Source: a virus
Lineage: Duplodnaviria; Heunggongvirae; Uroviricota; Caudoviricetes
Direction: 5' to 3' (one strand)
Length of the DNA stretch: 22,597 nucleotides
IMG/VR virus record: IMGVR_UViG_2874933748_000003
Positions 1,445 through 17,284 of this stretch are shown here, in pieces (positions within the stretch are counted from its first letter, which is position 1; every line of letters starts with the position of its first letter). The position numbers and the translations under genes were made by a program. The notes below the pieces were generated by a model. That model made no database searches and was not told the origin of the DNA. It saw only the letters and a list, made by a program, of their open reading frames with translations.

Positions 1445-1487
1445 TGAGGTGTACTGGCAATAGCGGACACTACCATTTGTTCTTTTT

Positions 1488-2302
1488 TTAAGCAGCCATC
1501 TGATGATATTTTTCCCTGAAGGCTGCCGGGGAGATATTCCCCAGACGAGAGTGACGACGCTGACGATTGTAGAAAATCTCAATGTATTCCCGTATTACTG
1601 AGATGGCTTCATCCCGGTTATTAAAACGATAGTGGCTCAGGCTCTCATTTTTCAGCGTTCCCCAGAAGCTTTCCATCGGAGCGTTGTCGTAACAGTTACC
1701 TTTACGCGACATTGATGTTTTCAGACCAGACTGCTCCTGTATGACCCGGTAATCGTATGCGCAGTACTGTGAACCTCGATCAGAGTGGTGGATTAGCCCG
1801 GCAGGTGGGCGCTGGCTCCTGAGCGCCATAAACAGGGCTTTACCTGTCAGCTCTTTTGTCATGCGCTCTCCATGGCGTAGCCGACAATTTCGCACGTATA
1901 AACATCTTTGATGCCAGCGAGGTACAACCATCCCTCCTGTGTGGCAACATACGTCAGGTCCGCCACCCAGACCTGATTTGGTGCTGTAGGAGCGAACGTC
2001 TGGTTCAGCAGATTTGGCGCAACTGGCAGATTGTGGTTCGAGTTCGTAGTCGCTCTGAACTTGCGTTTCTGCTTACAGCGTAGCCTTAGCTCCTTACGAA
2101 GACGTGCCAGTCGGTCACGACCAACGATGATGCCATTCTCTGCCAGCTCCGTCTGGAGCCGCCGGGTTCCATATGTTTCGCGAGTGCGGATATGTGCCAC
2201 CTTAATCTCCAGTTTTAGCCGCTCATCACTTTGTTTTCTGTCTGAGGGTTCATGCTGTACCCAGTTGTAATAACCGCTCTGGATACACCAAATACCTGAC
2301 AC
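1488..2302 (-). pseudogene. IS600 orfB transposase, frameshifted (split into ORFs 1859-2302 and 1488-1931)
   Basis: Translation matches intact OrfB of copy B; a G-run is one base shorter (GCCATGGAGAG versus GCCATGGGAGAG), breaking the frame. Confidence 0.8.
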
Positions 2303-2339
2303 ATCGCTTCAATGGGAAATTGTTGTCGCCATTGTTCGA

Positions 2340-2609
2340 TTAACGCGTATTTTTCAGCGACTCCTGTGCAAAATACGCTGTTGCTTTTTTTAATATATCT
2401 CGCTCAAGGCGAGCTTCATTTAACGCCTTACGCAGTTGCAGAATTTCAGATTCCAGTTCAGCCACCGTGCGGGAACCAGGAGTACCGAGCCCTTTTCTGG
2501 CGGCGGTAACCCATTGTCCTAAAGTGCCTTCAGGAAGAGATAATCGGGAAGCGCCTTCACTGATCGAAAGTTGATTTTCAAGAACCGTTCTGACAGCTTC
2601 AGCTTTGAA
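2340..2609 (-). pseudogene. IS600 orfA, missing its first ~10 codons
   Basis: Matches OrfA from KEFKAEAVRTV onward; canonical 7-A and 5-A tracts present; N-terminus replaced by IS21-family sequence. Confidence 0.75.
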
Positions 2610-3292
2610 CTCTTTAGAGGTATCGATACCGGCTGACCACACAGCGCTTCGGGAACGCTGTAACGATTACCACCAACCTCGATATAGCTGTCCCAGGACA
2701 CATGGCGGATATCGAAGTAACTGGTATCGAAGTCTGTATCCGGTAACGGCTGCAGATGTTCCTGCTCCAGCGCGAAGCGCTGTTCCGGCGTTTCTTTGAA
2801 CTGGCGAAGCTCCCGTTTGTCAGCCACATCGGCTATCCATTGCTCCAGTTGTTGATTGACATGAGTGAAGCTGTCGAACCTGCGGTACCGGACGAAGAAG
2901 TTCTCCTTGAGGTATTTCACCATCCGCTCAACCTTACCTTTTGTTCTGGCCCTGCGTGGACGGCATGCCCGTGGCAGGAAGTTATAGTGGTCAGCCAGCA
3001 ACAGGAATCCGGAGTTGAACACGACTTTCCCGTTGTTATTCTTCAGCACCGCAGCCTTCTGGTTATCAACCAGCACCGTTTTCACACAATCACCGAAGTA
3101 GCGGAAGGCGCGAACCAGTGATTCGTAGGTATGCTCAGCATCCTGTTTTGGTGCGGCGAAGACATGGAAGCTGCGGGAGAACCCCAGCGTATTAACCGCA
3201 AAGTTAACTTTGCACCGTTGCCCGGCAACCTCCACCTCAACTTCGCCCCAGTCATGCTGGAGCTGGTATCCAGGCTGAGTTTCGAAGCGAAC
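2610..3292 (-). pseudogene. istA: IS21-family transposase IstA, central/C-terminal segment
   Basis: Translation RFETQPGYQLQHDWGEVEVEVAGQRCKVNF...GNRYSVPEALCGQPVSI; ORF 2519-3235 in the track runs on into IS600 sequence. Confidence 0.7.
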
Positions 3293-3356
3293 TGAGGTAG
3301 CCTGAGTTTAACGGACACTCCTTCCTGAAATAGAATGGCATCAGAAGGAGCTAATA

Positions 3357-3656
3357 ATGAGCAGAAAAACCCAACGTTACTCTAAAGAGTTCAAAGCCGA
3401 AGCTGTCAGAACGGTTCCTGAAAATCAACTTTCGATCAGTGAAGGCGCTTCCCGATTATCTCTTCCTGAAGGCACTTTAGGACAATGGGTTACCGCCGCC
3501 AGAAAAGGGCTCGGTACTCCTGGTTCCCGCACGGTGGCTGAACTGGAATCTGAAATTCTGCAACTGCGTAAGGCGTTAAATGAAGCTCGCCTTGAGCGAG
3601 ATATATTAAAAAGCAACAGCGTATTTTGCACAGGAGTCGCTGAAAATACGCGTTAA
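3357..3656 (+). CDS. IS600 OrfA (variant C-terminus ...KSNSVFCTGVAENTR)
   Basis: 99-aa ORF with HTH-like N-terminus MSRKTQRYSKEFKAEAVRTV; first A-tract has 5 A and second has 4 A, versus 7 and 5 in copies A and C. Confidence 0.8.
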   Translation: MSRKTQRYSKEFKAEAVRTVPENQLSISEGASRLSLPEGTLGQWVTAARKGLGTPGSRTVAELESEILQLRKALNEARLERDILKSNSVFCTGVAENTR

Positions 3657-3693
3657 TCGAACAATGGCGACAACAATTTCCCATTGAAGCGAT

Positions 3694-4509
3694 GTGTCAG
3701 GTATTTGGTGTATCCGGAGCGGTTATTACAACTGGGTACAGCATGAACCCTCAGACAGAAAACAAAGTGATGAGCGGCTAAAACTGGAGATTAAGGTGGC
3801 ACATATCCGCACTCGCGAAACATATGGAACCCGGCGGCTCCAGACGGAGCTGGCAGAGAATGGCATCATCGTTGGTCGTGACCGACTGGCACGTCTTCGT
3901 AAGGAGCTAAGGCTACGCTGTAAGCAGAAACGCAAGTTCAGAGCGACTACGAACTCGAACCACAATCTGCCAGTTGCGCCAAATCTGCTGAACCAGACGT
4001 TCGCTCCTACAGCACCAAATCAGGTCTGGGTGGCGGACCTGACGTATGTTGCCACACAGGAGGGATGGTTGTACCTCGCTGGCATCAAAGATGTTTATAC
4101 GTGCGAAATTGTCGGCTACGCCATGGGAGAGCGCATGACAAAAGAGCTGACAGGTAAAGCCCTGTTTATGGCGCTCAGGAGCCAGCGCCCACCTGCCGGG
4201 CTAATCCACCACTCTGATCGAGGTTCACAGTACTGCGCATACGATTACCGGGTCATACAGGAGCAGTCTGGTCTGAAAACATCAATGTCGCGTAAAGGTA
4301 ACTGTTACGACAACGCTCCGATGGAAAGCTTCTGGGGAACGCTGAAAAATGAGAGCCTGAGCCACTATCGTTTTAATAACCGGGATGAAGCCATCTCAGT
4401 AATACGGGAATACATTGAGATTTTCTACAATCGTCAGCGTCGTCACTCTCGTCTGGGGAATATCTCCCCGGCAGCCTTCAGGGAAAAATATCATCAGATG
4501 GCTGCTTAA
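3694..4509 (+). CDS. IS600 OrfB transposase (DDE/integrase core), the only unbroken orfB in the window
   Basis: 271-aa ORF; both halves match the split orfB frames of copies A, D and E. Confidence 0.85.
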   Translation: MSGIWCIRSGYYNWVQHEPSDRKQSDERLKLEIKVAHIRTRETYGTRRLQTELAENGIIVGRDRLARLRKELRLRCKQKRKFRATTNSNHNLPVAPNLLNQTFAPTAPNQVWVADLTYVATQEGWLYLAGIKDVYTCEIVGYAMGERMTKELTGKALFMALRSQRPPAGLIHHSDRGSQYCAYDYRVIQEQSGLKTSMSRKGNCYDNAPMESFWGTLKNESLSHYRFNNRDEAISVIREYIEIFYNRQRRHSRLGNISPAAFREKYHQMAA

Positions 4510-4552
4510 AAAAAGAACAAATGGTAGTGTCCGCTATTGCCAGTACACCTCA

Positions 4553-4879
4553 AACTGTTCTTTTTGACGGACGCATTTTACGTTTGGGCTGGATGTAGTA
4601 ACGCAGCATGGAACGTCCGCCCGTATAACCCATTGCCTTAATCTCCGCGAAGATAACCTCGCTATTCCAGACATTCTCTGCCAGGCGCATGTCGATGTAA
4701 TCCATAAACGGTTTCAGCTTAACCATTTTGTGGCGGGTCTTTCTGGCTGGCGGTTCAGGGTATTTGAGGTAGCGTCTGACCGTCCGTTCAGAGCAACCAA
4801 TCTGAGTCGCAATATCGACGATGTACGCGCCCTGCTGGCGCATTTGCTTTATCATGTAAAAGTCCTCTCTGCTCAGCAT
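4553..4879 (-). pseudogene. istA: IS21-family transposase IstA, N-terminal HTH segment
   Basis: Translation MLSREDFYMIKQMRQQGAYIVDIATQIGCSERTVRRYL...KRKMRPSKRTV, then IS600 B. Confidence 0.75.
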
Positions 4880-4980
4880 GTTGATGTCCTTTCTGGTGTG
4901 AGAACCTTAAGGAAACAACATGTTGGGTGGAGCGGACAATCCAAATGGCGAATTACCGTCTTATATCACTGGCGCTGACA

Positions 4981-5292
4981 CTTCATCACCTCCGGACGTA
5001 AATCACCATCCTTTGGTGCATTCAGAAACGCGTTCAGTGTCCCCGGTGCATCAGTCGGTGCCACATCAATATCCCCGACACGGGTTGGCTGCCAGCCGTT
5101 ACAGTGAAGCGCAACCTCGTAATACCCCGGCTCAGCCTCAATCACATAAGCACCGTTATTGTCCGTCACGCAAGTGGCAACAACGTGTGCCACAACGGTC
5201 GGACTGGTTCTTCTGGCCCGCAGTTCAATCGCACAATTTACGACAGGTTTACCCGCCCCATCTTTCAGTACACCTGAAATCTTTACTGCCAT
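4981..5292 (-). pseudogene. stf: Side tail fibre gene, N-terminal ~104 codons only, truncated by the IS21-family insertion
   Basis: MAVKISGVLKDGAGKPV...GTLNAFLNAPKDGDLRPEV resembles the N-terminus of lambda Stf; frame continues into the IS terminus and stops. Confidence 0.75.
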
Positions 5293-5302
5293 ATTCACCC
5301 CA

Positions 5303-5328
5303 CAAAAAGCCCGCCTGAACCAGCGGGC
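5303..5328 (-). terminator. Intrinsic terminator-like hairpin downstream of lom
   Basis: Minus strand reads GCCCGC-TGGTTCAG-GCGGGC followed by TTTTTGTGGGG. Confidence 0.5.
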
Positions 5329-9000: not shown

Positions 9001-9502
9001 CCACCGAGGCCAGATACTGCGAAGTGGTTTTGCCCTTAATGGTGATGTCTTTTTCCGTCACCCAGCCACCGTTACGCTGTATCTGAACCAGCAGGCGGAC
9101 TTCCGACGGATTCCGGTCACCCTTTGAGGTGGTTTCCACCAGTGCCTGCACACCGAAGGTCAGGCGCAGACGGTCGATGTTTGCCGACGTGATGGTCCGG
9201 GTGATCGGCGTGTCATATTTCACTTCCGTACCCAGCACCGTCTCGGAGCCGGAGGATTCAAAACCCTCCGGCGGTGTCTGCTCCTGCTCACCTGCACGGA
9301 ACACCACCGTAACACCGGAAAAGTTTGTCTTCCCCTCGCTGTCCAGGACCGGCGTACCGTTCAGCAGCACGCTTTTTAATCCATCCACCGGACCGTCAAC
9401 CGGCCCTTCGCTGATGGCATCAATCACACTCAGCAACTGCGTGGATTTCAGGTTGTCCTTCGCTTCGCGCGGGGTATGCCCCTTACTGCTGCCTTTACCC
9501 AT
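6023..9502 (-). CDS. J: Tail tip / host specificity protein J
   Basis: 1159-aa ORF colinear with lambda J from [20 protein letters not shown] onward. Confidence 0.95.
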
Positions 9503-9524
9503 TCCTCACGCTCCATAAACGACA

Positions 9525-9544
9525 AAACCGCCCGCAGGCGGTTT
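9525..9544 (-). other. GC hairpin plus U-tract in the I-J intergenic region, overlapping the J ribosome-binding region
   Basis: Minus strand reads AAACCGCC-TGCG-GGCGGTTTT GTCGTTTATGGAGCGTGAGGA ATG. Confidence 0.4.
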
Positions 9545-9562
9545 CACATAAAACATTTTGCA

Positions 9563-10204
9563 TCAGCGACCAATCACCACAACCTGACCACCATCCCCTT
9601 CGTCTGCCGTGCTGATCTCCTGAGAAACCACACGTGACCCCACGCGCATTTCACCGTACAGAACGGGCAGAACATTGCCCTGGGCAACCATGTTATCCAG
9701 TGACGAGAAATACGTGTTCTGCTTACCGTTATCCGTTGTCTGTGTACGGGGAGTTCTGGCTTTCGGTGCCAGCATCTGTGCAACACCGCCAAGCGTCATA
9801 CTGGCACCGAGAGAAAACAGCAGATTACTCGCCATAATTCCTACCCCCGGCATCCATATAGCAACCGCCATAACAGCCGCCCCCAGCACCGCCTGAAACA
9901 CACCGCCACTTTTAGCTCCCACCAGACGCGGTACTATGTGGATCACTGCACCATTTGCCAGCGGCTCATTAAGACGGGCAGACAATTCGGTTTCACCTGC
10001 ATCACGCCCGGCAATGCGCACCTGATACCAGCCGTCACTCAGTTTCTGACGAAACGCCGGGAGCTGTGTGGCCAGTGCCCGGATGGCTTCAGCCCCCGTT
10101 TTCACACGAAGGTCGATGCGGCGACCAAATCGTTGTAAATCCCCGTAAAGGCAGATGCGCGCCATGCCCGGTGACGCCAGAGGGAGTGTGTGCGTCGCTG
10201 CCAT
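9563..10204 (-). CDS. I: Tail assembly protein I
   Basis: 213-aa ORF starting MAATHTLPLASPGMARICLYGDLQRFGRRIDLRV, as lambda I; overlaps the 3-prime end of K as in lambda. Confidence 0.9.
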   Translation of the reverse strand: MAATHTLPLASPGMARICLYGDLQRFGRRIDLRVKTGAEAIRALATQLPAFRQKLSDGWYQVRIAGRDAGETELSARLNEPLANGAVIHIVPRLVGAKSGGVFQAVLGAAVMAVAIWMPGVGIMASNLLFSLGASMTLGGVAQMLAPKARTPRTQTTDNGKQNTYFSSLDNMVAQGNVLPVLYGEMRVGSRVVSQEISTADEGDGGQVVVIGR

Positions 10205-10845
10205 TTGTCGGTGTACCTCTCTCGTTTGCTCAGTTGTTCAGGAATATGGTGCAGCAGCCCGCCGTCACCGCAGTAAATGGCGGCATGATTCGGCACCGAT
10301 GAACCAAAACAGCACAGCAGCACATCGCCCGGCTGTGCCTCTGTCAGTGCGACACGGTAAAAACCCGTCACCTCCATATTGTCAAGATAGAGATTCTGAC
10401 CGTTACGCCACCAGTCATCCCCGCGATGAAAATCCGGCATCTCAATCCCTGCCAGATGATAAGCATCCCGGAACAGCGTGTAACAGTCCGTCACCCCGTG
10501 CTCAAAGCGCCGCCCGGTGAGATGCGGCACACAGCGGAACTTGTGAATCGCCCCCCGGCAGACCAGCCACCACGGCAAATCACTCTGCACCTGCAGCCGC
10601 CGGTCAGCCTCACTCAGCCAGGGCAGACCACCGGGATGACTGTGGACCAGCGCCACAATCTCACCCTGCATTTGTGCCCGCAGCCAGTCCTCCGGAGCCA
10701 TCCGGAACCGTTCCTCCGGCTCACCGGAGATATTCTCGCTGGGAAGATACCTGTCTCCCTCCGGCGTTCTTACCACGAAGCCACACGACTCCGCTGGCGC
10801 ACATCGCCGGGCGTGCGCCAGAATCGCTGATTCTGTCTGTGTCAT
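10102..10845 (-). CDS. K: Tail assembly protein K (MPN/JAB plus NlpC/P60-like)
   Basis: Internal ATG at 10845 gives MTQTESAILAHARRCAPAESCGFVV...; HSHPGG motif present; the track ORF 10102-11109 is an upstream read-through. An alternative shorter start at MAPEDWL is possible. Confidence 0.85.
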   Translation of the reverse strand: MTQTESAILAHARRCAPAESCGFVVRTPEGDRYLPSENISGEPEERFRMAPEDWLRAQMQGEIVALVHSHPGGLPWLSEADRRLQVQSDLPWWLVCRGAIHKFRCVPHLTGRRFEHGVTDCYTLFRDAYHLAGIEMPDFHRGDDWWRNGQNLYLDNMEVTGFYRVALTEAQPGDVLLCCFGSSVPNHAAIYCGDGGLLHHIPEQLSKRERYTDKWQRRTHSLWRHRAWRASAFTGIYNDLVAASTFV

Positions 10846-10849
10846 GGAT

Positions 10850-11548
10850 TTACTGAGAAAGTTTATTGATGGAAAGGAAACCGCCGAAATTACCGGTATT
10901 GTTGCGCAACTCACACCCGCGCATACACTTGCTGCATTTGTCCTTCCGGATATCCGTCGTTGGTTTGTCGAACTCGTCAGCCACTGCCCTGCCCGTGTAA
11001 CCACACTCATCAGAACGGTAAGTCCACATACAGGTATTCGCCAGCATGATACGCCCCGGGAAAACCGCGCCATCCGTCTCCGTTGGTGTGGCCAGCACAA
11101 AAGAGGCACTGACCGCGCTCAGTTCGCTGCACTGCTCGATGCGCCAGCGGCTGATCACCTCCTGTTCCGGATCGGCGTCGCTGTTTCCGTTGACGAAGTT
11201 CACCGCATCCAGAAAACGGGCGTAAACCTTACGCCTGACCACCGTTCCGCCGACCAGACTCTGCAGGTCTTCCGCCATCCCGGTGACCATTCCGTGCAGG
11301 TTAGAAACCGTCAGTGTCGGACGGGCAGCACTGCCCTTGCCGTTCAGTTCAAATCCCGTCCCCTGAATGGGGTATGCCTGATACTGCCGCCCCTGCCAGG
11401 TAACCGGCTCACCTTTTTCGTTCTGCTCATTACAGAAAAAATAACGTTCACCACCGACCTCTGTCAGATCGATTTCCCAGAGCACCACCTGGGCTGACTG
11501 AGTGAGGCGTGTCGTCTCATGATGTGTTTCCTGTGGAATATCCTGCAT
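10850..11548 (-). CDS. L: Minor tail protein L
   Basis: 232-aa ORF MQDIPQETHHETTRLTQSAQVVLWEIDLTEVGGERYFFCNEQNEKGEPVTWQGRQYQ matches lambda L. Confidence 0.92.
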   Translation of the reverse strand: MQDIPQETHHETTRLTQSAQVVLWEIDLTEVGGERYFFCNEQNEKGEPVTWQGRQYQAYPIQGTGFELNGKGSAARPTLTVSNLHGMVTGMAEDLQSLVGGTVVRRKVYARFLDAVNFVNGNSDADPEQEVISRWRIEQCSELSAVSASFVLATPTETDGAVFPGRIMLANTCMWTYRSDECGYTGRAVADEFDKPTTDIRKDKCSKCMRGCELRNNTGNFGGFLSINKLSQ

Positions 11549-11557
11549 CAGAGCCTC

Positions 11558-11887
11558 CTATGCCACGACCTGTTCAAAATCTGCCGTTATGGTTACCCAC
11601 AACGCCCCCACGCTTGCCGACCATTTACGACAAACCACCCTGATCGGCTTCCAGTCATAAGGTGGCGTCCACTGAAATGCGCGGACGCCACCGTGCCGTT
11701 CCAGAAAGGCTTTTAAAAATGGGTGTTCACCTTTACGAACACGTATCTTCACGCTGTAAGTCGACAACTGGTTATTCAGTCCCGCCGCACGACGCTGTTC
11801 ATAACCATCGCCCAGCTTCACTGTCACCACTTTCGGCTCTGATACCACATTCATATCCGGGCGCACTTTCCAGTGAAACGTCTCCAT
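11558..11887 (-). CDS. M: Minor tail protein M
   Basis: 109-aa ORF METFHWKVRPDMNV...WTPPYDWKPIRV...EFEQVVA resembles lambda M. Confidence 0.9.
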   Translation of the reverse strand: METFHWKVRPDMNVVSEPKVVTVKLGDGYEQRRAAGLNNQLSTYSVKIRVRKGEHPFLKAFLERHGGVRAFQWTPPYDWKPIRVVCRKWSASVGALWVTITADFEQVVA

Positions 11888-12226
11888 TACCGGTATGCTC
11901 CACTTAACCGGCCACCATCACGGGCCTGCTGTTGCATAAAGTCCGCGGCCGCTTTTTTCCCGAGGTCATAAACCACCTTCAGGGCAGCCGGACCTATCTG
12001 CCCGTTCGTGCCATCGTTATTGATCTCAATGTTGTACTGCGGGGCAAACATCACCATGCCTGAACCACCAGTATCCGCCACACCCCCCAGCTTACCATCA
12101 GCACCGCGACGCAGTGGCAGAATGGCTTCAGGTCCCGCTTCCCCCATCACACCCGCGCCTTTTGCAAAAGCAAAAAACGTCGGACGGTTAACCACCGTGC
12201 CACTGTAGCGACTCAAATCAGCAGAC
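11887..12226 (-). pseudogene. H: Tail tape measure protein H, C-terminal ~113 codons only, truncated by IS600 copy C
   Basis: ...FAPQYNIEINNDGTNGQIGPAALKVVYDLGKK...RDGGRLSGAYR matches the C-terminus of lambda H; upstream part of the track ORF (MSVKLRLPQ) is IS600 terminal sequence. Confidence 0.85.
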
Positions 12227-12705
12227 TGAGGTAGCCTGAGTTTAACGGACACTCCTTCCTGAAATAGAATGGCATCAGAAGGAGCTAATAATGAGCAGAA
12301 AAACCCAACGTTACTCTAAAGAGTTCAAAGCCGAAGCTGTCAGAACGGTTCCTGAAAATCAACTTTCGATCAGTGAAGGCGCTTCCCGATTATCTCTTCC
12401 TGAAGGCACTTTAGGACAATGGGTTACCGCCGCCAGAAAAGGGCTCGGTACTCCTGGTTCCCGCACGGTGGCTGAACTGGAATCTGAAATTCTGCAACTG
12501 CGTAAGGCGTTAAATGAAGCTCGCCTTGAGCGAGATATATTAAAAAAAGCAACAGCGTATTTTGCACAGGAGTCGCTGAAAAATACGCGTTAATCGAACA
12601 ATGGCGACAACAATTTCCCATTGAAGCGATGTGTCAGGTATTTGGTGTATCCAGGAGCGGTTATTACAACTGGGTACAGCATGAACCCTCAGACAGAAAA
12701 CAAAG
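12227..12705 (+). mobile_element. IS600 copy C, left ~480 bp only (IRL, orfA, start of orfB)
   Basis: TGAGGTAGCCTGAG at 12227; sequence runs to CAAAGTGA inside orfB, then the left end of copy D begins. Confidence 0.85.
12291..12593 (+). CDS. IS600 OrfA, canonical 100-aa form with the A7 slippery tract
   Basis: Ends ...RDILKKATAYFAQESLKNTR; 7-A and 5-A tracts; reading the minus-one frame from the A7 tract gives the OrfB N-terminus. Confidence 0.85.
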   Translation: MSRKTQRYSKEFKAEAVRTVPENQLSISEGASRLSLPEGTLGQWVTAARKGLGTPGSRTVAELESEILQLRKALNEARLERDILKKATAYFAQESLKNTR

Positions 12706-12769
12706 TGAGGTAGCCTGAGTTTAACGGACACTCCTTCCTGAAATAGAATGGCATCAGAAGGAGCTAATA

Positions 12770-13057
12770 ATGAGCAGAAAAACCCAACGTTACTCTAAAG
12801 AGTTCAAAGCCGAAGCTGTCAGAACGGTTCTTGAAAATCAACTTTCGATCAGTGAAGGCGCTTCCCGATTATCTCTTCCTGAAGGCACTTTAGGACAATG
12901 GGTTACCGCCGCCAGAAAAGGGCTCGGTACTCCTGGTTCCCGCACGGTGGCTGAACTGGAATCTGAAATTCTGCAACTGCGTAAGGCGTTAAATGAAGCT
13001 CGCCTTGAGCGAGATATATTAAAAAAGCAACAGCGTATTTTGCACAGGAGTCGCTGA
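12770..13057 (+). pseudogene. IS600 orfA with altered C-terminus (6-A tract)
   Basis: 95-aa ORF ending ...RDILKKQQRILHRSR; A-tract is one base shorter than in copy C. Confidence 0.7.
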
Positions 13058-13108
13058 AAAATACGCGTTAATCGAACAATGGCGACAACAATTTCCCATT
13101 GAAGCGAT

Positions 13109-13923
13109 GTGTCAGGTATTTGGTGTATCCGGGGCGGTTATTACAACTGGGTACAGCATGAACCCTCAGACAGAAAACAAAGTGATGAGCGGCTAAAACT
13201 GGAGATTAAGGTGGCACATATCCGCACTCGCGAAACATATGGAACCCGGCGGCTCCAGACGGAGCTGGCAGAGAATGGCATCATCGTTGGTCGTGACCGA
13301 CTGGCACGTCTTCGTAAGGAGCTAAGGCTACGCTGTAAGCAGAAACGCAAGTTCAGAGCGACTACGAACTCGAACCACAATCTGCCAGTTGCGCCAAATC
13401 TGCTGAACCAGACGTTCGCTCCTACAGCACCAAATCAGGTCTGGGTGGCGGACCTGACGTATGTTGCCACACAGGAGGGATGGTTGTACCTCGCTGGCAT
13501 CAAAGATGTTTATACGTGCGAAATTGTCGGCTACGCCATGGGAGAGCGCATGACAAAGAGCTGACAGGTAAAGCCCTGTTTATGGCGCTCAGGAGCCAGC
13601 GCCCACCTGCCGGGCTAATCCACCACTCTGATCGAGGTTCACAGTACTGCGCATACGATTACCGGGTCATACAGGAGCAGTCTGGTCTGAAAACATCAAT
13701 GTCGCGTAAAGGTAACTGTTACGACAACGCTCCGATGGAAAGCTTCTGGGGAACGCTGAAAAATGAGAGCCTGAGCCACTATCGTTTTAATAACCGGGAT
13801 GAAGCCATCTCAGTAATACGGGAATACATTGAGATTTTCTACAATCGTCAGCGTCGTCACTCTCGTCTGGGGAATATCTCCCCGGCAGCCTTCAGGGAAA
13901 AATATCATCAGATGGCTGCTTAA
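13109..13923 (+). pseudogene. IS600 orfB, frameshifted (ORFs 13109-13564 and 13480-13923)
   Basis: GACAAAGAGCTGAC has 3 A where the intact copy B has 4. Confidence 0.75.
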
Positions 13924-14016
13924 AAAAAGAACAAATGGTAGTGTCCGCTATTGCCAGTACACCTCACACTCTATCCAACAAACCACCCACAGTTAATCGG
14001 AATAAAAGCAGAGTGC

Positions 14017-14089
14017 TTATGAATGATCGCACGCCCGAAGGTTAGTATTTCTGCACAGCAATTTTGCAAAAAAAGGCGATCATTCATAA
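14017..14089. repeat. Perfect 14-bp inverted repeat TTATGAATGATCGC / GCGATCATTCATAA with a 45-bp spacer
   Basis: Arms at 14017-14030 and 14076-14089, in the 180-bp stub between the tRNA cluster and IS600 copy D. Confidence 0.6.
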
Positions 14090-14148
14090 CTTAAACGTCT
14101 TTCAGTCACTCCGGGATTTCCCATCATCGCAGACTGAAAGACTCTGAC

Positions 14149-14223
<75 letters not shown>

Positions 14224-14226
14224 ATA

Positions 14227-14302
<76 letters not shown>

Positions 14303-14304
14303 GC

Positions 14305-14381
14305 TGGCCCACCACCGAGGACTCGAACCTCGCACCGTCAACTTAGAAGGTTGATGCTCTATCCGGATGAGCTAGTGGTGG
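14305..14381 (-). tRNA. tRNA-Arg (anticodon UCU), with an unusual C1-G72 start to the acceptor stem
   Basis: Reverse complement CCACCACTAGCTCATCCGGATAGAGCATCAACCTTCTAAGTTGACGGTGCGAGGTTCGAGTCCTCGGTGGTGGGCCA; anticodon stem TCAAC/GTTGA, loop CTTCTAA. Confidence 0.8.
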
Positions 14382-14382
14382 T

Positions 14383-14459
14383 TGGTGGCCCTTGCTGGAC
14401 TTGAACCAGCGACCTGGCGATTATGAGTCGCTCGCTCTGACCAACTGAGCTAAAGGGCC
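14383..14459 (-). tRNA. tRNA with anticodon CAU, probably Ile2 (lysidine) type rather than elongator Met
   Basis: Reverse complement GGCCCTTTAGCTCAGTTGGTCAGAGCGAGCGACTCATAATCGCCAGGTCGCTGGTTCAAGTCCAGCAAGGGCCACCA; anticodon arm GCGACTCATAATCGC resembles E. coli ileX-type tRNAs as I recall them. Confidence 0.8.
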
Positions 14460-14648: not shown

Positions 14649-15203
14649 TCAAAAAGCAATAACTTTTTTCTCTATACCAAAAGCCATAACCATTGGTTTG
14701 TACAAAATAAATTCTGCCACCTTTAGCCAATGCTCAATGCGTCTTTCACAGGTTCTTAAACTCCATTTCGGGTGTGCATCATTCAGCAGTTCAGCCATTT
14801 TGCGTTTGGTCATCCCCCGCCCCTCATACCGTTGCCGAAGGACGCTAATCAATCCTGGATGCTCTGCCAGCACCTCACTTATGACCCGATCAATACATAA
14901 CGCCTCTGCATCAGTACAATGCGCCAGCCAGCTCTTTTGCTTACCGTTAATCATATCCCGCAAAAAAGCCTCAAGTTCAGACTTGTTCAGACCTGCTTTT
15001 TTCATCCTCCGGAGCGCCTCGTTAATTGCCGTTTTTGTCAGCTTTTTAGAGGTCAACATCAGGTTAAACATATTCCCCGTCTTACCGCCACCAATATACG
15101 ACCAGCGCCCCCACATACGTAGTTTTCCCTGAATCCAGACACTTTCCAGCGTGGTGAGACGAAGGTGTTCTCCGCTTTTTCCTGTATTCGTTGGGTAAAT
15201 CAT
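14649..15203 (-). CDS. Late-gene antiterminator Q-like protein (QuuD/phage-82 type)
   Basis: ATG at 15203 preceded by AAGGAGGG; W-G-x-W motif near the N-terminus (LRMWGRWSY); position just upstream of a terminator and tRNAs; start overlaps the stop of the upstream gene (ATGA). Confidence 0.6.
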   Translation of the reverse strand: MIYPTNTGKSGEHLRLTTLESVWIQGKLRMWGRWSYIGGGKTGNMFNLMLTSKKLTKTAINEALRRMKKAGLNKSELEAFLRDMINGKQKSWLAHCTDAEALCIDRVISEVLAEHPGLISVLRQRYEGRGMTKRKMAELLNDAHPKWSLRTCERRIEHWLKVAEFILYKPMVMAFGIEKKVIAF

Positions 15204-16373: not shown

Positions 16374-16479
16374 GATGCCTCCAGGTTTATAAGTACAAAC
16401 GGTTATATCAACATAGAGACAAAAGGTGATGCTGCCAACTTACTGATTTAGTGTATGATCGTGTTTTTGAGGTGCTCCA

Positions 16480-16755
16480 GTGGCTTCTGTTTCTATCAGC
16501 TGTCCCTCCTGTTCAGCTACTGACGGGGTGGTGCGTAACGGCAAAAGCACTGCCGGACATCAGCGCTATCTCTGCTCTCACTGCCGTAAAACATGGCAAC
16601 TGCAGTTCACTTACACCGCTTCCCAACCCGGTACGCACCAGAAAATCATTGATATGGCCATGAATGGCGTTGGATGCCGGGCAACTGCACGCATTATGGG
16701 CGTTGGCCTCAACACGATTTTACGTCACTTAAAAAACTCAGGCCGCAGTCGGTAA
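16480..16755 (+). CDS. insA: IS1 InsA
   Basis: 91-aa [46 protein letters not shown]. Confidence 0.9.
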
Positions 16756-17177
16756 CCTCGCGCATACAGCCGGGCAGTGACGTCATCGTCTGCGCGGAAA
16801 TGGACGAACAGTGGGGCTATGTCGGGGCTAAATCGCGCCAGCGCTGGCTGTTTTACGCGTATGACAGTCTCCGGAAGACGGTTGTTGCGCACGTATTCGG
16901 TGAACGCACTATGGCGACGCTGGGGCGTCTTATGAGCCTGCTGTCACCCTTTGACGTGGTGATATGGATGACGGATGGCTGGCCGCTGTATGAATCCCGC
17001 CTGAAGGGAAAGCTGCACGTAATCAGCAAGCGATATACGCAGCGAATTGAGCGGCATAACCTGAATCTGAGGCAGCACCTGGCACGGCTGGGACGGAAGT
17101 CGCTGTCGTTCTCAAAATCGGTGGAGCTGCATGACAAAGTCATCGGGCATTATCTGAACATAAAACACTATCAATAA
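16674..17177 (+). CDS. insB: IS1 InsB frame (expressed as the InsAB-prime fusion by frameshifting)
   Basis: 167-aa ORF overlapping insA in the minus-one frame. Confidence 0.9.
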
Positions 17178-17284
17178 GTTGGAGTCATTACCAAAAAAAC
17201 CGCCGAAACGGGTTAAGTGCGGGTGCGTTGAGGATGCCTGACACATCAAAGGTGGCGGGAGATTACTCTCCCGCCTGGTCACTC

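Follow-up and report, generated by a model that had tools for sequence, protein, structure and literature searches.

A head-to-tail IS600 pair in a defective lambda-like Shigella sonnei prophage: probable scar of an IS-driven adjacent deletion

The stretch of DNA analysed here (22,597 nucleotides, hereafter the window) carries five copies of the insertion sequence IS600, labelled A to E, and two of them create an evolutionary puzzle: How did a complete copy of the element, D, come to lie in direct orientation against the interior of a truncated one, C, with the two copies touching each other, the remains of a phage tail gene on one side and phage tRNA genes on the other? The answer that we consider highly probable is that this arrangement is the scar of an adjacent deletion driven by IS600 in a Shigella sonnei prophage that is lambda-like and defective, in which the left end of copy D was joined to a distant site. 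The steps leading to this answer concern the identity of the elements, the reality of their junction, the nature of the flanking genes and the molecular reaction that could have connected them.

The elements are bona fide IS600 of the IS3 family, every defining feature tested being present. In the window, their sequences share at least 99% identity with entries annotated as 'IS3-like element IS600 family transposase'; IS600 copies are 1259-1264 bp long and terminate with imperfect inverted repeats running from 5'-TG to CA-3' (TGAGGTAGCCTG... and ...CAGTACACCTCA). Profile matches identify orfA as PF01527 and orfB as PF13276, PF00665, PF13683 and PF13333, and a near-identical copy carries the RefSeq annotation 'programmed frameshift', orfA and orfB being fused by -1 frameshifting at an A-run that occupies IS positions 315-321. 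Target-site duplications (TSDs) of 3 bp are present around copy B (AAC), around the IS600 that occupies the site of D in another assembly, L087 (CP061367.1; CAC), and around 12 further copies in S. flexneri and E. coli.

Among the copies of the window, B (3293-4552, plus strand) is complete, as is E (20848-22106, plus strand), which lacks a TSD, being flanked by TAG at the left end and TTG at the right, and probably took part in recombination or deletion. Copy A (1445-2619, minus strand; IS positions 88-1260) is without its first 87 bp and abuts an istA-like fragment of the IS21 family (2519-3235, with rve and Mu-transpos_C_2 domains), their join (window 1445-3235) being another truncated-IS junction. 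Copy C (12227-12705, or to 12708 if a shared TGA is counted; plus strand; IS positions 1-475) retains the IRL, the whole of orfA (12291-12593; PF01527, 2.2e-19) and the A-run frameshift region, and breaks off after 74 nt of orfB. Over ~480 nt it matches the other copies at 99% identity, and chance similarity is therefore no concern. Copy D (12706-13966, plus strand) is complete and shows the full layout of the IS3 family, HTH_Tnp_1 followed by HTH_21 and rve, but is devoid of a target-site duplication, as noticed in the first-pass annotation, since its flanks differ (left, AAG or GAC; right, CAC).

Within the window, orfB of copy D is split in two (13109-13564 and 13480-13923) by a one-base difference in the A-run that is absent from most other assemblies, and a fused transposase of 385 aa is called for this copy in other assemblies. 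The A-run at the frameshift site counts 7 residues in C (12540-12548), 6 in D (13018-13024) and 5 in both B (3606-3612) and E (21161-21167), and 7 in all three IS600 units of assembly L004 (CP023645.1). These differences within the window are probably homopolymer errors of its assembly, and the split orfB of D is probably a peculiarity of assembly or strain. Because homopolymer lengths vary, the reading-frame calls for the IS600 copies of the window are unreliable, and homopolymer differences between copies, which vary between assemblies, have been set aside as evidence. Copies D and E also have in common a one-base loss that splits orfB (also at 13554). A different alteration of D, an internal deletion of 178 bp (IS ~791-965, equivalent to window 13494-13671) which removes part of the DDE domain, is found in strain Ss046 (L100, CP000038.1) and in assembly L010 (CP151349.1), and is not in the window.

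The junction between C and D reads ...GAAAACAAAG/TGAGGTAGCC, with the slash marking the join (AAG/TGA, 12703-12708). Intact IS600 reads ...AACAAAG/TGATGAGCGG at that point, and the left terminus of the element is TGAGGTAGCC. The early observation that C ends inside its own orfB at 12705, exactly where D starts, is borne out, with the added detail that the TGA at 12706-12708 corresponds to IS positions 476-478 of C and equally to positions 1-3 of D; these 3 bp can be assigned to either copy, because the continuation of C and the start of D both read TGA. The target context of the join is CA-AAG-TG. One candidate, a tandem IS dimer (IS)2, was rejected: The junction connects IS position 475 to the IRL and, since no IRR is present in it, the C/D pair is not a tandem dimer.

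Before giving evolutionary meaning to this junction, one has to consider an assembly misjoin or a collapsed repeat, a possibility for which the first-pass annotation had asked a check. The IS600 copies of the window differ mainly in homopolymer lengths, which suggests sequencing noise, but an artefact of this kind is practically excluded, because an identical 45-mer spanning the junction occurs in 16 of the 17 independent chromosomes that have the locus. These include Ss046 (CP000038.1) and FDAARGOS_90 (CP014099), both named as S. sonnei (PMC5447701). The 17 distinct chromosomes (4.57-4.94 Mb) were retrieved by look-ups of the window proteins M, L and Q-like, and the 16 junction-bearing assemblies derive from different projects and technologies, with Ss046 being Sanger-finished; protein fragments derived from the locus are also labelled Shigella sonnei. 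An exact search for the 45-mer in a collection of species-representative genomes gave no match, S. sonnei having no representative of its own in it, while a BLAST comparison of the junction with complete E. coli genomes aligned every IS600 copy to both halves and merged them. The C/D junction is real, and it is fixed across S. sonnei.

On the left of the pair, the first-pass annotation had placed copy C in the tape-measure gene, and this location is confirmed. The left end of C cuts a lambda-type tape-measure gene of which the last 112 codons and the stop remain (11887..12226, minus strand). This remnant aligns to uninterrupted genes annotated 'phage tail tape measure protein', and its protein matches are named tape measure protein, some of them from Shigella sonnei; the uninterrupted E. 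coli homologues read through the insertion point of C as ...CAGCAGAC/TGATAAA or /TGGTAAA. The remnant is followed on the same strand by the tail genes M, L, K, I, J and lom, in the order H-M-L-K-I-J-lom that is recognizable from PF05939 (M), PF05100 (L), PF00877/PF14464 (K), PF06805 (I), GpJ domains and Ail_Lom.

On the right of the pair, an intergenic segment (13967..14148) which constitutes the original right flank of D extends from the tRNA cluster towards the position of the deleted holin gene, and is collinear with positions 4001-4185 of E. coli FDAARGOS_943 (L001), located between a tRNA and a class II holin gene; an Rfam search of 13967-14148 gave no match to an RNA family. Contrary to the first-pass annotation, the right end of D does not border a tRNA stub. 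Four complete phage tRNAs (Gly-tcc, Thr-tgt, Arg-tct and Met/Ile-cat; 14149-14459, minus strand) were found by ARAGORN at 182 bp from the right end of D, and none is truncated, because Rfam matches all four from end to end (RF00005, 1-71/71 x4). Upstream of the tRNAs lies a DUF1133/Q-like late-gene regulator (14649..15203, minus strand; PF06576 and PF06530 are recorded for an identical protein), an indicator that the early-late boundary of the prophage has been retained. Relatives have holin, lysozyme, Rz and terminase genes on the far side of the intergenic segment. The genes of the window, all on one strand, thus run collinearly from Q-like and tRNAs, through a gap, to H' (the tape-measure remnant), M, L, K, I, J and Lom. 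As judged from this collinearity, they would derive from a single lambdoid prophage that is minus its lysis, packaging, head and proximal tail genes. The IS load of the prophage comprises IS600, IS1 and the IS21-family fragment. Two direct copies of IS1 (16425-17190 and 19941-20700, 99% identical) bracket ~2.7 kb of early genes (Hok/Gef, DUF551, HNH), and one or both of them are missing from the S. sonnei assemblies L004, L007 and L011.

Which side of the pair preserves the original situation? Assembly L087 (CP061367.1) has an IS600 at exactly the site of D, arranged as ...GGAAAGCAC/IS600/CACTCTATCC with a perfect TSD, CAC; the corresponding empty site in E. coli FDAARGOS_943 reads GGAAAG/CAC/TCT. 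This assembly carries an identical Q-like protein, its right flank is 100% identical to the window over 1500 bp and, past the left end of the IS600, it retains holin, lysozyme, Rz and a DUF1441 terminase-region gene that are absent from the window. In the window, the left flank of D is replaced from base 1 of the IS, while the right flank is unchanged. Copy D is consequently the resident copy at its original site, with its right junction original, because L087 presents a simple insertion flanked by CAC with late genes beyond the left end. The loss of the late region from exactly the left terminus of D is the signature of an IS-anchored adjacent deletion. The deleted segment presumably measured ~15-20 kb, a very rough figure that we take from the lambda map.

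The undeleted configuration, which had been recommended for comparison with related genomes, was found for the side of D only, in L087. Searches of complete E. coli genomes for IS600 at either outer flank site gave no single-piece match, a protein search for a full-length, near-identical tape-measure gene in relatives gave fragments only, look-ups with the tail proteins M and L retrieved S. sonnei-type loci only, and no genome was found that combines an intact prophage with a full-length copy C. The closest annotated relative on the tRNA side, E. coli FDAARGOS_943, has a myovirus-like tail module that is not collinear. In other assemblies, the short proteins P0019, P0051, P0068, P0049 and P0061 consist of a DUF1441, phage-lysozyme or Minor_tail_Z domain fused to a C-terminal tape-measure part that shares 92-98% identity with the remnant; other such prophages have therefore undergone independent deletions that stop in this 3' portion of the gene.

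The adjacent deletion that we favour would have proceeded as follows. Copy D was inserted, with the TSD CAC, in the interval that separates the phage tRNAs from the holin gene, and a later transposase reaction at its left end would have connected this end with a more distant site of the prophage. The intervening DNA, with the holin, lysis, terminase, head and most tail genes and stopping short of the last 112 tape-measure codons, would thereby have been removed, and the left end of D would have come to abut position 475 of C, the copy that itself begins in the tape-measure gene; the join would have been made at a CA-NNN-TG site, mildly preferred by IS600. Transposases of the IS3 family cleave a single strand at one terminus of the element, and the 3'-OH so freed is transferred to the same strand, close to the opposite terminus; the product is then resolved by replication (PMC1636345). 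We infer a one-step strand transfer of this type by the 3'-OH of the left end of D, rather than a new insertion followed by recombination: If the cleaved left end attacked the same strand beyond the element, replication would yield a daughter with an adjacent deletion, whereas attack on a sister copy would yield a partial duplication.

Three histories yield the same sequence: The left end of D could have been joined to a full copy C in the tape-measure gene, a new element could have been inserted in C and then recombined with D, or the left end of D could have made a deletion reaching directly into the tape-measure gene, with C being a later partial duplicate. Two variants of the locus show further junctions. 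Assembly L004 (CP023645.1; reverse complement of 10670-13002, matching window 12227-13966) has three tandem units, C (1-475), X (1-586) and complete D; its X/D junction, ...GTTGGTCG/TGAGG, falls at an interior TGA where the intact element reads ...GGTCG/TGACCG. In assembly L083 (CBDDMI010000001.1; reverse complement of 3800-5318), C is reduced to positions 1-255 in front of D, with a junction ...CTGGA/TGAGG, versus CTGGA/ATCTG in the intact element, that shows no microhomology; C seems to have been shortened here by one more deletion starting from D's left terminus. Both new junctions begin exactly at the first base of D (TGAGG), and X cannot come from unequal crossing-over between C and D, because its length is not 479 bp. 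The expectation that the tandem pair would be a substrate for further amplification or deletion thus holds in L004 and L083, by way of new left-end junctions and not of C/D unequal crossing-over. The left end of D, or of an incoming IS600, repeatedly joins the interior of IS600 at this locus.

A tandem duplication could also arise within one IS600, without a transposase, by replication slippage or through TGA...TGA microhomology, and the 3-bp TGA does appear at the C/D and X/D junctions as well as at the tape-measure site. Such an origin is very improbable, however, since every junction starts at IS position 1, which would happen in about 1 in 1260 cases per event if random, and the junction of L083 has no microhomology; moreover, C and D differ at position 126.

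The partial duplication in L004, formed with the flanks unchanged, also affects the meaning of the C/D junction itself, which need not be the junction of the phage-gene deletion, because the L004 join was formed without flank loss. The first-pass annotation had explained the locus by an IS-mediated deletion extending from D into C. What stands of that explanation is that the junction is real, that D has lost its left flank and that the late genes are missing; what stands only as a possibility is the identification of the C/D join with the deletion junction and of C with a former full copy. C may never have been an independent insertion: The left end of D could first have made a deletion reaching directly into the tape-measure gene (H'/D), with the first 475 bp of D duplicated later. 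The 586-bp duplication of L004 provides a precedent at the same locus, the tape-measure site CA-GAC-TG(A) is itself a preferred target, and the IS600 of L087 as well as three S. sonnei copies of D have C at position 126, as copy C has. We nevertheless hold this sequence of events to be doubtful, for C and D differ at position 126 in 14 of the 17 genomes, requiring a later change in D, and the single-copy state H'/D was not seen among the 17.

The remaining history, in two steps, starts with a new IS600 inserted in the same orientation at positions 473-475 of a full-length C, after which homologous recombination with D deleted the interval between them. It would produce exactly the observed sequence, at a target (CA-AAG-TG) that is of the kind preferred in ordinary insertions, and IS-in-IS insertions are common, with S. 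flexneri having a full IS600 abutting IS600 (1167-1260). The left part of D also points in this direction, since it has T at position 126, like copy A, where the L087 copy has C, and it differs from the L087 copy also at position 35. Against it, two events would be needed for each of the junctions at 475, 586 and 255, each with precise recombination, and the nested full-copy intermediate was not seen in 17 genomes. The nucleotide at position 126, the single reliable SNP, carries little weight: Copy C has C, unit X has T, and D has T in 14 genomes and C in 3 (n = 17), so that this site is not decisive, because it is polymorphic among S. sonnei assemblies. Altogether the two-step history is a serious possibility, even if we would not choose it.

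Is there a reason why these ends were joined where they were? The target survey covered unique IS600 flanks from 68 loci of species-representative genomes (mainly S. flexneri SFBU1023 and a 4.44-Mb chromosome labelled E. coli), together with the other loci of the analysis. TG occurs at +4/+5 past the right end in 9 of 42 flanks, compared with a background of 7% (p = 0.002, uncorrected for the 10 offsets inspected), and CA at -5/-4 ahead of the left end in 8 of 48 (p = 0.018, likewise uncorrected for 10 offsets); both counts are the highest among those offsets. These ~45 sites hint at a weak target bias of IS600, CA-NNN-TG, which would be palindromic and similar to the element's own IRR-NNN-IRL junction. 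The tape-measure target reads CA-GAC-TG. In three of the four left-end joins, those at the tape-measure gene, 475 and 586, TGA continues the target after the join, and in two of them CA lies three bases upstream (CA-GAC-TG and CA-AAG-TG). In view of this bias, the joins are better explained by transposase acting at its ordinary preferred targets than by breakage at random.

IS-in-IS events and pairs of a complete element with a fragment are common in these genomes, where IS911, IS2 and IS629 are found inside IS600. Between IS600 positions 444 and 478 there are an IS911 at 444-446 (L087), an IS2 at 444-448 (L084), an IS911 at 469-471 (L062) and the IS600 at 473-475 of the window (12703-12708). 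Four independent insertions or junctions of IS3-family elements in ~35 bp, just past the frameshift region, suggest a local insertion hot spot. The S. flexneri SFBU1023 pair (L059, 1884-3241) is a mirror image of the one in the window, a complete IS600 followed by IS600 1167-1260, with outer flanks GCA/AAC. In the early region of another prophage (L085, UGZB01000001.1; reverse complement of 9465-11021), a complete IS600 is followed by a GAC spacer and then by IS600 1-290, the only genuine IRR-3 bp-IRL join encountered, as in tandem dimers or circles; its GAC spacer equals the 3 bp on the left of copy C, either by a coincidence of 1 in 64 or through some link. Beyond the deletion itself, we propose only tentatively, as a possible but rather unlikely generalization, that the left end of D is a recurring source of one-ended strand transfer, its cleaved 3'-OH attacking CA-NNN-TG sites in place of the partner end and so generating adjacent deletions and partial self-duplications, and that IS600 444-478 is an insertion hot spot for the IS3 family. 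Three distinct junctions (475, 586 and 255) are already segregating at this single S. sonnei locus.

IS-mediated decay of prophages is well known in Shigella, and the event described here is an IS scar of a known and ordinary kind, in a sequence that has been public since the Ss046 genome; our understanding of IS-driven genome decay in this genus is unchanged. Mildly new are only the repeated formation of left-end junctions at this locus and the weak preference for CA-NNN-TG. The scar is a record of how the lysis and morphogenesis genes disappeared from one S. sonnei prophage, and the joins around it constitute a small natural data set on IS600 end joining. For assembly and annotation, the C/D pair counts as a true tandem repeat, of the sort that tends to be collapsed with short reads. 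Since the scar is species-wide and variants with an extra or a shorter unit exist, it could serve as a lineage marker.

Compared with known systems, the element itself is no different from the IS600 of Shigella and E. coli, a copy-out-paste-in member of the IS3 family, except that copy C is a 5' fragment and the orfB of D is split here. Adjacent deletions anchored at IS ends are classically associated with IS1 and IS903, while to our knowledge IS3-family elements are not classically known for them. The locus resembles such deletions in having one endpoint exactly at an IS terminus, the other flank kept and no TSD around the surviving copy. It also recalls the tandem dimers and circle junctions of IS911 type (IRR-3 bp-IRL), with two direct copies head to tail and a CA-NNN-TG context resembling IRR-NNN-IRL, but the C/D junction joins the interior position 475 to the IRL, with no IRR. 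An experimental parallel is provided by IS30, a copy-out-paste-in element in which deletions have been observed to run from an inverted repeat into the interior of a second IS copy (PMC9333248). As in this locus, deletions of IS30 dimers may end in the 'inner sequences' of another copy (PMC9333248); the S. sonnei case differs in that it involves a member of the IS3 family, has left no IRR-IRL junction that would point to a dimer intermediate and is deduced from natural genomes. Finally, the locus is of the same kind as the IS-driven prophage decay of Shigella at large, of which it represents one specific, species-wide instance with the loss of lysis and morphogenesis genes.
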